From Bacteriovoracaceae bacterium (GTDB taxonomy: Bacteria; Bdellovibrionota; Bacteriovoracia; Bacteriovoracales; Bacteriovoracaceae), in NCBI GenBank assembly GCA_049599895.1, contig JBMYPC010000022.1:1-30182 (forward strand): 30,182 bases of DNA, read 5' to 3'. Of this stretch, positions 11,592 through 15,530 are shown in pieces. The translations under genes were made by a program, and so were the position numbers. Each line of letters begins with the position of its first letter. Positions within the stretch are counted from its first letter, which is position 1. A model generated the notes under the pieces. It had not been told where the DNA came from and made no database searches. It was given only the letters and a program-made list of their open reading frames with translations.

Positions 11592-12641
11592 ATGGTGATT
11601 AACAGAAGAACATTCGTAAAGCTTTTAGGGCTGGGTTTATCGGCACCAGCACTTGGTTTTGGAAAAGAGCAAACAGAACTCTTTTTACCAAAAACTGATC
11701 CCCGAAGACTAATGACGAAGTTCTGTTTTGGTTCTTGTAATAAACACCATCTTCCCCAGGATCATCTTTCGGCTATCGCTTCTTTAGATCCCGATCTTTT
11801 TATATGGCTTGGCGATAATGTCTATGGTGACACTTATGATATGAACCTTCTTCAAAGTAAGTATCAAAGCCTTAAATCAAACTCACATTTTTATAATCTT
11901 TACCGAACATGTCCGATGATTGGAACTTGGGACGATCACGACTTTGGAAAGAATAATGCAGGTGCTGAGTTTTTGATGAAAGAAATGAGTCAGCAGCACT
12001 TTCTCGATTTCTTTGATGTTCCTAAGGATTCCCCACGAAGAGAGCAAAAGGGGATCTATTCTTCAAGTGTTCATGGGCCCGCAGGTCAAAAGGTGAAATT
12101 TATACTTCTCGACCTTAGGTATCACAAAGAAAAGAAAAACAAAAAAACTGCAGACATGCTAGGCCAAGAGCAATGGACTTGGCTTGAAAATGAAATTAAA
12201 AATAGTGATGCAAGTTTTCATATTTTTTGTTCAAGTATTGGCGTTTTAAAAGGTCTTCCTTTTGTGGAAGACTGGAGTGACTATCCCAGAAGCTATAAGC
12301 GCTTTATGGATTTGATTGATACTTATAGACCTTCGGGAACTTTTTTCATCTCGGGTGATAAACATTTTGGTGCTCGGATTACCAATACTTATAAAGGACA
12401 GCGTTATTATGAATGGATGTCTAGCGGTATGACCCATTCAATACGAAAGCCCTTTATTCCTGTTGCCCGGTTTAAGTATAAGAAAAAGAACTGTTACTTT
12501 GAAGAAAACTTCGCTCAAGTTCTTTTTGACTGGGAAAAAAGTGAGCCTGTCATGACCACTCAAATTCTTAATCCAAGCAAACGAGTTGTTCTAGAGTCTC
12601 GATACCAGCTCTCTTCAGGGATACTTAGACAAATCTCTTAA
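11592..12641 (+). CDS. phoD: PhoD-family alkaline phosphatase, Tat-exported
   Basis: Twin-Arg signal NRRTFVK. Motifs FGSC, GDNVYGD, WDDHD and SGDKH. Confidence 0.9.
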   Translation: MVINRRTFVKLLGLGLSAPALGFGKEQTELFLPKTDPRRLMTKFCFGSCNKHHLPQDHLSAIASLDPDLFIWLGDNVYGDTYDMNLLQSKYQSLKSNSHFYNLYRTCPMIGTWDDHDFGKNNAGAEFLMKEMSQQHFLDFFDVPKDSPRREQKGIYSSSVHGPAGQKVKFILLDLRYHKEKKNKKTADMLGQEQWTWLENEIKNSDASFHIFCSSIGVLKGLPFVEDWSDYPRSYKRFMDLIDTYRPSGTFFISGDKHFGARITNTYKGQRYYEWMSSGMTHSIRKPFIPVARFKYKKKNCYFEENFAQVLFDWEKSEPVMTTQILNPSKRVVLESRYQLSSGILRQIS

Positions 12642-13723
12642 GAAATGATGTTTTCAAAAAAAGGCCTTCCGTGAGAAATTCCCTTTAACCAAATCGCCTC
12701 TTTAATTTTTCCTTTTTCAAGATGAACAATAATATCAATATTTCGACAAACAAGTTCTTGGATATTATTGGCATCAATTGTCTTGAGATTTGAATAAAGA
12801 CAAAAGAGCATAATGAGTCGATCAATGGCATCGAGAGCCGAGTTGGCGTGGATGGTGGACATGAGTCCTTTATGGCCATTGTTGAGATTGAGAATAAGGG
12901 GAACAACTTCAGATGATCGAATTTCTCCCAATAAGATTCGATCAGGTCTCATCCTTAATAAATAATGACAATAGTTTAGATAATCGTCATCTTTTCTTCC
13001 CGTTCTTGTAATCAGATGGCTCACATTCTGGCTATGGGTTCTTATTTCGGGAAGATCCTCAATGACTACTGTGTGTTCCTCTTGGTTGAGATGACAGAGA
13101 AGTGAATTTAAAAAGGATGTTTTTCCAGATCCCGTACTGCCAGAGATGAGAATATTACTAAAGCTTCTTCCCTGATCGATAAGATAGTCTTTAAGTTCGC
13201 TGGAGTTGGTAAATTGATCAAGAGTAAAAATTTCCTTTTTAAAGATTCTTATATAGGCCTTATGACAATGATTTTGGTTTGTTGAACTATGAATGAGGGT
13301 GACTCGAACCTTTTTTCCAAATAAAGTTCCATCAAAACTACAGAATGGATTTTCGTAGTTAAAGCTTTGACCATGACGAATCGCTAAGAACTCCATCGAG
13401 AGGTTATATTCAATGACCTCAAGATCATAAAGTGTGTGCTCCATAGAGGAATTAAATGTTGTAAATTGAATATGTTGATGAGAGTGGAGGATGATTTCAT
13501 GGGGATCCTCATTGAAAACGTCCTCGATAAAAGATAATGAAAAAAGATTAGAAAACCAATCTTGTGCGACTTCTGATTTAAAGAACTGAAAACTTTCTTT
13601 TAAATCTGTATGATTTTCTAAAAAATAACGAATGAGTGATTCATAAGAATCGCAAAAACCTGAAGAGTGAATACGACTGAAGTTTTTTTGAAGACAATCG
13701 TTGATGATTTGTCTCGAAGTCAT
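12638..13723 (-). CDS. cpaF: TadA/CpaF (VirB11-family) pilus assembly ATPase
   Basis: Walker A GSTGSGKTS, Asp box IED, LRMRPDRILLGEIR and His box GHKGLMSTIHANS. Confidence 0.88.
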   Translation of the reverse strand: MTSRQIINDCLQKNFSRIHSSGFCDSYESLIRYFLENHTDLKESFQFFKSEVAQDWFSNLFSLSFIEDVFNEDPHEIILHSHQHIQFTTFNSSMEHTLYDLEVIEYNLSMEFLAIRHGQSFNYENPFCSFDGTLFGKKVRVTLIHSSTNQNHCHKAYIRIFKKEIFTLDQFTNSSELKDYLIDQGRSFSNILISGSTGSGKTSFLNSLLCHLNQEEHTVVIEDLPEIRTHSQNVSHLITRTGRKDDDYLNYCHYLLRMRPDRILLGEIRSSEVVPLILNLNNGHKGLMSTIHANSALDAIDRLIMLFCLYSNLKTIDANNIQELVCRNIDIIVHLEKGKIKEAIWLKGISHGRPFFENIIS

Positions 13724-15009
13724 TGAAGTTCCTCAACATTAATAATTCCATAGATCTTTTTATAATGGTGACTTTTATTTCGACTCGAAAAAAGAGCACT
13801 CAAGAGGGGGATCTTATTAAGGTATGGAATAGATTTATGGTTTTCAGCATAAGATTTAATCCCAACGGTGAAGAGTTTTGTAGGCTCGTCTCGATAAAGA
13901 TAAAGCATCGATTTTTCAGTATTGGAATTAAACTGACCTTCGGAAGTAGGACTGGAAAGAGAGATAAGACTCTTTGCTTTTAGTTTTGAGCCAAATCTTT
14001 CAAGCTTAAGTTTGACGGATAGCCCTGCGAACTTCCATTTTGTCTCTGTCCTATTTTCTCCTGCTTGCCCTTGAAAAGGTATTTCACCACCAATTTTGAG
14101 CTCAACATATTCATCGAGAATGGTTGTGATTTCAGGTTCTGCGATGACTTGAAAATTGACTTTTTCGTCTTTGAGATGAATGAGATTGTTTTCATAAACC
14201 TCATTAAAGCTTTTCTTAAAAAGGGAAGAGAGAGAAATCTTAAACTCTTCGAGTCCAAGATCTCTATGTTTATCGTCTAAATTCTCAAATTGAATAATCT
14301 TAAGTGAAACTCTGTAGTTTTTTGGTGATGGGCCTGGAGCTTCTGCCATCACAGAGACTTGATAGCGACTTTCAAGTTTAGTCAGTAAAGTTTTAAGCTT
14401 TTTCTTTTCAGCATCAACTTCACAAAAAATTTGGATATTTCTTGTGTAGCAATTAATACTATCTTCAAACTGAGCATAAAACTGTGAGTAAACTTCTGTA
14501 ATGATTGGCCTCCATATCTTTGAGGAGAGTTCTCCTTGAATTGAGAGAGAGGCCTTTTTAGCTTTATGTGTTCTTAAGAGTTTATTGAGGTAAAGATAAT
14601 GGGCCTTATCTTCAAGAGGCTTCAAGATTTTCAAAGAATTAAAACCAATCTGTTTAAAATTCAAGCTGTGATTTTTTAAATAGTGAATGACTCGCTTTAG
14701 CTCCTTACTGGGCTTAAAGTTTAAGATTGCGATCCGATAGGTTTTGATAAGCTCTCCACGGTTCCAGATGTTGAGAGTACTCTGGCCGAGGGCCTTGGAT
14801 TTAATGATGATTTCTGACGCAGAAGGTCTCGAGGTCACTGAGATTTTACTTGGATCCGAAATGGAGAACTTAGAGTTGCGCGGAAAGTCAATTGGCTTAA
14901 TTTCACCTCTTGAAAGGTAAATATCTGAAATTTCGGAAAAACATTCATTGTTAATCAAAAAACTCAGAAAAAGCACGAGCAATAATTTGACTGAATTTAA
15001 GAATTTCAT
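13720..15009 (-). CDS. cpaC: RcpA/CpaC-like secretin
   Basis: Signal peptide and a pilus N-domain (ISDPSKISV). Secretin motifs AEPEIT, GGEIP and IPYLNKIPLLSALFSS. GAGGA RBS. Translationally coupled to the ATPase. Confidence 0.8.
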   Translation of the reverse strand: MKFLNSVKLLLVLFLSFLINNECFSEISDIYLSRGEIKPIDFPRNSKFSISDPSKISVTSRPSASEIIIKSKALGQSTLNIWNRGELIKTYRIAILNFKPSKELKRVIHYLKNHSLNFKQIGFNSLKILKPLEDKAHYLYLNKLLRTHKAKKASLSIQGELSSKIWRPIITEVYSQFYAQFEDSINCYTRNIQIFCEVDAEKKKLKTLLTKLESRYQVSVMAEAPGPSPKNYRVSLKIIQFENLDDKHRDLGLEEFKISLSSLFKKSFNEVYENNLIHLKDEKVNFQVIAEPEITTILDEYVELKIGGEIPFQGQAGENRTETKWKFAGLSVKLKLERFGSKLKAKSLISLSSPTSEGQFNSNTEKSMLYLYRDEPTKLFTVGIKSYAENHKSIPYLNKIPLLSALFSSRNKSHHYKKIYGIINVEELQ

Positions 15010-15015
15010 TATGTT
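14987..15015 (+). promoter_or_regulatory. Sigma70-type promoter for the small basic ORF
   Basis: TTGACT (14987-14992), a 17-nt spacer, then TATGTT (15010-15015). The spacer contains the secretin start codon on the opposite strand. Confidence 0.6.
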
Positions 15016-15057
15016 ATGTCCTCACTTGCGATTCATGTTGATAAGGAGAAAGTGATC

Positions 15058-15189
15058 ATGGTTTCACTTACGCGAATAACGAAAACGAAAAGAGCTAATA
15101 AACGTAAGAAAATGGGAAAAAAGCGCAAGGCTGCGAATAGAAACAAGGGAACAACTCCTAAGTTTGCGATTCACCAAGACAAAGCTTAA
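15058..15189 (+). CDS. Small, highly basic 43-aa protein absent from the ORF track: MVSLTRITKTKRANKRKKMGKKRKAANRNKGTTPKFAIHQDKA
   Basis: AAGGAG RBS at 15043-15048, ATG15058 to TAA15189. Fills the gap between the secretin and the 108-aa gene. 16 K/R versus 1 D. Confidence 0.8.
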   Translation: MVSLTRITKTKRANKRKKMGKKRKAANRNKGTTPKFAIHQDKA

Positions 15190-15203: not shown

Positions 15204-15530
15204 TCACAGACTTCTCTTTATAGGTGTATGAAACACCCGCAGCGCATTTCTAAAATGTGACGGTGACGTTTTTACAATTTTAAATTCACCACGACCATCA
15301 AAGCAAAAGTGATAAATTGATTCTTTCACTTCATGGCAGACTTTCTTTTTGTCTTTCACAGACTTAATTCCAATAAATTCTTTGGGAATAGAGTAGCGAT
15401 CGATTAAAACTTCTTTTGTGAGTTTGGCCTTGTCCCATTCCCCTGAATGTGTGATCACAAAGATTTCTCGGGCCTGAGCAGAAAAGCAAAGACAGGTGTG
15501 CAAAGCTAAAAGCTTAATAAGGTATTTCAT
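15204..15530 (-). CDS. Secreted Tad-cluster protein (possibly RcpB/CpaD-like)
   Basis: Signal peptide ends ...SAQA. Overlaps the upstream gene by 17 nt. Sits just before the secretin. Confidence 0.55.
   Translation of the reverse strand: MKYLIKLLALHTCLCFSAQAREIFVITHSGEWDKAKLTKEVLIDRYSIPKEFIGIKSVKDKKKVCHEVKESIYHFCFDGRGEFKIVKTSPSHFRNALRVFHTPIKRSL

Follow-up and report, generated by a model that had tools for sequence, protein, structure and literature searches.

To our knowledge, new ribosomal proteins of bacteria are seldom discovered, and until now they emerged as surprises of cryo-EM. Small ribosomal proteins have previously been found as unannotated genes (10.1101/2023.04.16.537070), and bS22, a protein with an AURKAIP1/COX24 domain and the analogues mS38 and eL41, was found in this way in Borrelia (10.1101/2023.04.16.537070; PMC10085706). 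Both bS22 and mS38 are described as bent basic helices (10.1101/2023.04.16.537070). The protein bL37 of Actinobacteria is likewise small, helical and lineage-specific and sits in an rRNA pocket (10.1101/2023.04.16.537070; PMC10085706). The protein bL38 of Bacteroidia and spirochaetes, of about 5 kDa, is phylum-conserved and growth-critical and was first seen as unexplained density in the ribosome (PMC11851116). Here, the gene of a 43-aa basic protein from a Bacteriovoracaceae bacterium is compared with these systems.

The gene, its signals and its neighbours

The window, i.e. the whole stretch of 30,182 nt that was analysed, is contig C22 of a 3.27-Mb genome, which is 97% complete. The features in and around the gene are the following:

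15058-15189, plus strand: gene of the 43-aa basic protein, from ATG to TAA; ortholog of B. bacteriovorus Bd3769
15043-15048, plus strand: Shine-Dalgarno sequence AAGGAG, 9 nt 5' of the ATG at 15058
14987-14992, plus strand: putative -35 hexamer TTGACT, within the 5' end of the divergent secretin gene
15010-15015, plus strand: putative -10 hexamer TATGTT, after a 17-nt spacer; at chance level if taken alone
13720-15009, minus strand: secretin-domain gene of a Tad-type pilus cluster, divergent from the 43-aa gene; a neighbour in part of the phylum only
12638-13723, minus strand: T2SSE ATPase gene, next after the secretin gene
15204-15530, minus strand: gene of a 108-aa protein without Pfam family, convergent; a conserved neighbour in Bacteriovoracaceae-like loci

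A sequence-only reading of this DNA had pointed out an ORF of 43 codons with 16 K+R and a single acidic residue, and exactly this composition (11 K, 5 R, one D and no E) is encoded at 15058-15189, resulting in a net charge of about +15 and 37% basic residues. An alternative longer frame of 57 codons begins with the ATG at 15016; this start was rejected and ATG 15058 was taken, because the homologs align from the Met at 15058. The ribosome-binding site AAGGAG named in that reading is present, and SD words are kept across homologous loci: a 4-nt word occurs in 171 of 196 loci, whereas a control window has one in 29 of 196 (these and the following counts exclude four duplicate loci and false hits). 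Of the near-consensus sigma70 promoter claimed there, the site itself exists with 9 of 12 matches; taken alone, it is at chance level, as 3 sigma-70-like sites were found and 3.4 are expected by chance. The promoter-like site gains support from its conservation, since TTGAC is found at a distance of 40-100 nt upstream in 150 of the 196 loci, and within the 60 nt downstream in 7 of 196. The supposed preference for codons of highly expressed genes is also borne out in part: the gene ranks at the 84th percentile of 2858 genes, but CGC is a disfavoured codon of this genome, and CGA, ATA and ACG are used as well. In the same genome, bL34, bL35 and bL32 rank at the 90th, 92nd and 97th percentile, respectively. 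Folding of the leader is not out of the ordinary (z -1.6), a search for a terminator-like site at the locus found none, and no RNA holder is listed for the window.

The gene occupies a 194-nt gap between the secretin gene and the gene of the 108-aa protein, and between positions 12638 and 16797 it lies antisense within a minus-strand run of Tad-type pilus genes. This antisense layout, with the -35 hexamer inside the secretin gene, recurs in Bacteriovoracaceae-like loci, so that overlapping opposite transcripts are possible. A role within the Tad pilus cluster, as a partner or by antisense regulation, would fit the interruption of this run and the Tad-type ATPase or secretin gene that is located divergently upstream in many loci (clusters with 48 and 18 members among 157 loci). 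Such a role is nevertheless very improbable: a TonB-like gene and a gene of 275-350 aa flank it instead in Bdellovibrio and in two other families, the neighbours in Myxococcota loci differ again, and the Bdellovibrio ortholog shows no correlation with the pilin Flp1 (r -0.06; PMC12546842).

Depending on the lineage, the recurring neighbours comprise a Tad-type ATPase or secretin, metK, holB/tatD/metG, an aminotransferase or the TonB-like gene. Since the neighbours vary in this way, the 43-aa gene stands as its own small unit. Linkage to a ribosomal-protein operon was not found among 36 annotated representatives of the recurring neighbours, clustered from the 157 loci. At two loci of family f4 (L026 and L030), a longer-tailed member is located directly upstream of a gene of an Rsm22-like methyltransferase; the Rsm22-like family is tied to small-subunit assembly in mitochondria.

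Distribution, conservation and predicted structure of the family

When the single sequence was used as query, 32 of 41 related genomes gave one match each, and a profile built from 11 close sequences retrieved 126 representatives at 50% clustering. With an alignment of 100 sequences (A3), 901 proteins were matched. Among 301 genomes of Bdellovibrionota, A3 matched 266, i.e. 266 of the 269 genomes outside of the families f6, f16 and f20, with a single match in each of the positive rows listed; some A3 sequences were taken from genomes of this sample, which are therefore hits by construction. The positive genomes include one of only 0.9 Mb and others within 0.9-2 Mb. The misses fall into f6 (0/28), f16 (0/2), f20 (0/2) and three single genomes. 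Even at E values up to 1, the search of f6 yielded partial noise only and no family member.

In none of the 28 genomes of f6 was either the 43-aa family or bS22 found. Five of these genomes were examined and possess four or five lon copies each; upstream of 10 of their 21 lon copies no conserved basic ORF was detected.

In a second phylum, A3 matched 82 of 151 Myxococcota-type genomes. One of these matches was dropped due to the lack of a start codon, and 81 were confirmed with the broader alignment at E ≤ 2e-7; in 70 of the 151 genomes the family was not found. The tails of the 81 members are of the type G-T-T-P-x-F-x-I-H in 54 cases and of another type in 27. When roughly one third of the genome collection was scanned with a pattern, 120 loci were obtained, whose titles are mostly Bacteriovoracaceae, Bdellovibrionales, Oligoflexia, Myxococcales or Deltaproteobacteria. 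Thus, the statement in the sequence-only reading that similar peptides occur as hypothetical proteins in Bdellovibrionota and Myxococcota proved right for both groups. The database names returned for the family are exclusively 'hypothetical' or 'uncharacterized', and the closest protein hits are 'hypothetical proteins' of Halobacteriovorax. Viral or phage copies were searched for and none were found.

Some hits of the pattern scan are titled Rickettsiales, Enterobacteriaceae, Flavobacteriaceae, Nitrosovibrio or Sulfitobacter and carry typical family members. The loci with unexpected titles (L083, L090, L114, L121, L122, L145, L148, L149, L151 and L065) are likely mislabelled records or mixed bins.

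The ORF is a real gene. Homologs are abundant and their frame is conserved, and the dN/dS ratio is 0.08-0.13 for pairs with at least 75% DNA identity and 0.21 for pairs with 70-75%. These values stem from 154 distinct gap-free sequences that were chosen for G20, G31, P34 and H39, so that dN is somewhat lowered. Third codon positions are about twice as variable as first and second ones in this set, and stop codons interrupt the other five frames in 49-115 of the 154 sequences. The gene is hence under purifying selection with a dN/dS of about 0.1. Together with the distribution across the 301 genomes, this corresponds to the single-copy core pattern of ribosomal proteins.

Up to the tail, the length is fixed, with a family median of 45 aa, and conservation is position-specific and goes beyond charge alone: M1, S3, R12, G20 and K24 are near-invariant over the broad alignment, and A3 adds G31 and T33. 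An AlphaFold2 model (mean pLDDT 87) predicts one helix at residues 4-18 and a second one at 21-30, interrupted at G20 and followed by an extended tail with the motif G-T-T-P-x-F-x-I-H. According to this model, the protein would have no globular core and would consist of two isolated helices and a loop. Structure searches with the model returned generic helices, both in Foldseek (best E 6.1) and in VIA (best Z 3.5, rmsd 4.9, 41 residues aligned).

Expression of the ortholog Bd3769

The protein from one Bdellovibrio locus (L226) is identical to CAE81131.1 / Q6MGZ6, which is Bd3769 of B. bacteriovorus and is annotated as 'uncharacterized'. In the supplement rows of PMC12546842, Bd3769 was detected with 3 unique peptides. 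Its abundance (log2) rose from 5.14 in attack phase, the lowest value, through 5.44 after 15 min to a maximum of 5.77 after 3 h, and was 5.42 after 7 h. The mRNA amounted to 1106 RPKM (row 3421 of the rising mRNA list of PMC10627809, with at least 147 genes above), beside uS4 (1011), bL21 (975), bL9 (1126) and uL24 (1136). Bd3769 is thus translated and peaks in the growth phase, and protein as well as mRNA from published data now stand behind an ORF that had been proposed from its letters. The two outcomes that would have refuted the sequence-only reading, a lack of homologs with a kept frame and a lack of signs of translation, thus did not arise. Within PMC10627809, Bd3769 occurs in the RNA table and not in the searchable proteomics tables. 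The cluster file of PMC12546842 holds neither Bd3769 nor five ribosomal proteins that were sought, and the available supplements of a Tn-seq paper (PMC6561027) contain no HD100 locus tags.

The time course of Bd3769 was compared to the mean of 37 ribosomal-protein rows, out of 52 matches in PMC12546842 (r 0.88; RMSD 0.083), and it lies closer to this mean than 16 of the 37 ribosomal proteins do in a leave-one-out comparison. As background served 102 of 2195 proteins from three table parts of the same source, all of them with few peptides (2-5). None of these came as close by RMSD, one exceeded Bd3769 by r, and only 4 showed a higher mean signal. The profiles nearest to Bd3769 were, in this order, bL35, ATP synthase subunit a, bS21 and bL31, and 13 of the 15 nearest among 139 profiles belong to ribosomal proteins, in a set without translation factors. 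The TMT signal of Bd3769 (about 5.4 log2) is below that of bL35 and uL30 (about 6.7), and fewer peptides were counted for Bd3769.

A comparison against 22 further proteins of PMC12546842 gave r values of 0.86 for GreA, 0.84 for EF-P, 0.81 for EF-Ts and 0.75 for RpoA, and of 0.19-0.58 for RpoB, RpoC and RpoZ. Level and time course of Bd3769 are ribosomal-protein-like, a likeness that is unspecific with regard to GreA, EF-P and EF-Ts; as these behave alike, the profile shows growth-coupled housekeeping and not ribosome binding. It places Bd3769 with the growth-coupled gene-expression machinery and speaks against nucleoid, hibernation and pilus roles. For a ribosomal role, the co-variation with ribosomal proteins provides indirect support.

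Instead of a stable ribosomal component, the protein might be a growth-coupled RNA-binding or gene-expression factor, for example an assembly chaperone, a partner of a translation factor, or a small subunit or regulator of RNA polymerase. We consider this unlikely, but it is the main alternative: GreA, EF-P, EF-Ts and RpoA have a similar time course, the gene stands alone outside ribosomal operons, and the core single-copy pattern would suit any essential housekeeping role. The poorer fit of the other three polymerase subunits and the predominance of ribosomal proteins among the nearest profiles argue the other way. The strong positive charge suits RNA, and two isolated helices with a loop, if the model is correct, would need a large partner.

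A nucleoid or protamine-like protein, by which DNA would be condensed for the small cell of the attack phase, would also be small and very basic, and B. bacteriovorus has unusual chromatin proteins, as PMC10627809 reports. However, the abundance of Bd3769 tracks neither nucleoid proteins nor the attack phase, in which it is at its minimum. It runs opposite to the histone Bd0055 (r -0.91) and is unlike the profiles of HU-beta (RMSD 1.15), HU Bd0711 (r 0.64) and IHF (r 0.50) in the rows of PMC12546842. Furthermore, conservation is position-specific and includes a hydrophobic tail, and the family also occurs in non-periplasmic Myxococcota. Such a function is quite improbable. The genome also encodes a 110-aa protein of K/A/T repeats with 57% K+R (G000:C219:368-700, plus strand), which looks histone H1-like by eye.

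A factor for ribosome hibernation or stress would have counterparts in other ribosome binders that are small and basic, such as SRA. As Bd3769 peaks during growth and the hibernation factor pY shows an opposite trend (r -0.48) in the same proteomic rows, there is very little probability left for this role.

Relation to known ribosomal proteins and proposed role

Sequence searches of Pfam, NCBIfam and PDB with single proteins and with alignments gave noise only. For the 100 members of A3, no ribosomal family of Pfam or NCBIfam was found at E values up to 1; among PDB chains, A3 retrieved none at E up to 10 and the alignment A4 one unrelated chain (E 0.051). In the ESM Atlas only unnamed clusters were hit, and the nearest named cluster of ribosomal kind was L32p with a non-significant value of 0.79. 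The sequence-only reading had been unable to match the protein to a named family, and its novelty is upheld, since no characterised family matches.

bS22 is the closest analogue. Like the 43-aa family, it is tiny, basic and helical with a bend, and it is often unannotated and patchy among lineages (10.1101/2023.04.16.537070; PMC10085706). The 43-aa family differs in its greater median length, in its conserved non-helical tail and in its coexistence with bS22 in 9 genomes. The proportion of basic residues is 37% in the 43-aa protein and 55-65% in bS22/eL41 (PMC10085706). With the bS22 models PF08213 and NF047430, none of the 100 members was matched at E values up to 1, while true bS22 controls matched. 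Because the distribution is clade-wise and the two profiles show no alignment (hhalign probability 0.4%), an assignment of the family to bS22 was rejected. Genuine bS22 genes are present at L204:1498-1590 and L205:1492-1590 in two genomes of f16, the only ones over the cut-off among the 301.

Functional replacement of bS22 within the h27/h44/h45 pocket would be a specific form of a ribosomal role, and its probability, which we rate as low, is contained in that of the main reading given below. In favour, both Bdellovibrionota genomes with bS22 lack the 43-aa family, and in the second phylum bS22 occurs in 0 of 54 genomes with the full tail versus 29 of 70 without the family; the predicted bent basic helix would fit as well. 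Against it, bS22 is also found in 9 of 27 genomes with tail variants, 41 of 151 carry neither, the pattern follows clades and so comprises few independent events, and the profiles share no similarity. In addition, a second basic peptide of 33 aa in the genome is another candidate for that pocket.

This second unnamed ultra-basic peptide is encoded at G000:C40:6098-6199 (plus strand), with an SD sequence, and also at L231 and L232-L251. Its gene has the strongest codon bias tested (top percentile). One match each was found in 25 of 41 related genomes, in 22 of 24 within the family, and the 0.9-Mb genome possesses it as well. Neither a Pfam or NCBIfam family nor a profile match to bS22 was obtained, and judging from its sequence, it is a candidate for another small ribosomal protein. 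Two further genes with strong codon bias, C134:4264-4626 and C203:3392-3751, look like bL19 by eye, which is our assumption for both.

With regard to bL37, the role proposed for the 43-aa protein would be similar, namely that of a small, helical and lineage-specific protein in an rRNA pocket (10.1101/2023.04.16.537070; PMC10085706). However, the searches of NCBIfam, Pfam and PDB gave no sequence match to bL37. The protein uL30, examined with respect to the bL37 pocket, is short both with and without the 43-aa family (open frames of 63-88 aa in both). The 43-aa protein is presumably about twice as long as bL37. As a small protein conserved throughout a phylum, bL38 is a precedent; its gene forms an operon with those of bL28 and bL33, unlike the 43-aa gene (PMC11851116), and no sequence match to the 43-aa family was found.

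In size and charge the protein also resembles bL34, bL32, bS21, bL35 and bTHX. No match to the family HMMs of bL34, bL32 and bS21 was obtained within the 43-aa family, nor a real match to Thx. Judged by these comparisons, the protein is unrelated in sequence to bS22, bL34, bL32 and bS21. The same genome has genes of bL32, bL34 and bS21 (the last one truncated by the contig end) at other places, so that the protein does not replace these canonical ones. B. bacteriovorus likewise has bS21, bL32 and bL35 beside Bd3769 in its proteome. A resemblance to eL29 (PF01779) in motif spacing, which we took as a lead only, was rejected: PF01779 found nothing in the genome at E up to 10, nor in the 100 members.

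The 43-aa protein is probably a new lineage-specific ribosomal protein, a predicted kinked pair of basic helices with a short tail and putative ribosome binding; we put a rough probability of 0.65 on this reading. Its copy number would roughly equal that of the ribosomes. Both K/R-rich helices would occupy an rRNA groove, in which the residues S3, R12, G20 and K24, all of them near-fixed, would set register and kink, and F36, I38 and H39 of the tail, which is replaced in some lineages, may pack on a neighbouring protein or base. In this position, the protein could brace a subunit or help to assemble it, like bS22, bL37 and bL38 do elsewhere. Its pocket would be, at a guess that leans clearly to this side, another one than that of bS22, because members with tail variants coexist with bS22. 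The missing linkage to ribosomal operons, a codon bias milder than that of four ribosomal genes of the same genome, and the loss in whole families speak against a ribosomal role.

In the literature searched, no ribosome MS or structure from Bdellovibrionota or the Myxococcota-type phyla and no description of the family were found; this coverage is incomplete, with subscription papers mostly outside of it. 'Bd3769' appears in no main text in this literature, and a search for motif and accession led to one unrelated paper.

Somewhat short of even odds, we would go further and regard the protein as an undescribed ribosomal protein at a site unfilled in any solved bacterial ribosome, marking Bdellovibrionota and half of Myxococcota. 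The family spans two phyla, and with Bd3769 a named and expressed ortholog exists in a tractable and harmless model. It would also supply a marker gene absent from Pfam and NCBIfam. If the ribosomal reading is true, the catalogue of lineage-specific ribosome parts would be extended, and the finding would bear on the recruitment of small basic peptides to rRNA pockets. Together with the second unnamed peptide of 33 aa, predatory bacteria would then have a ribosome composition of their own. Even if the protein is non-ribosomal, it belongs to the core proteins of the growth phase in predatory bacteria and has no assigned function.
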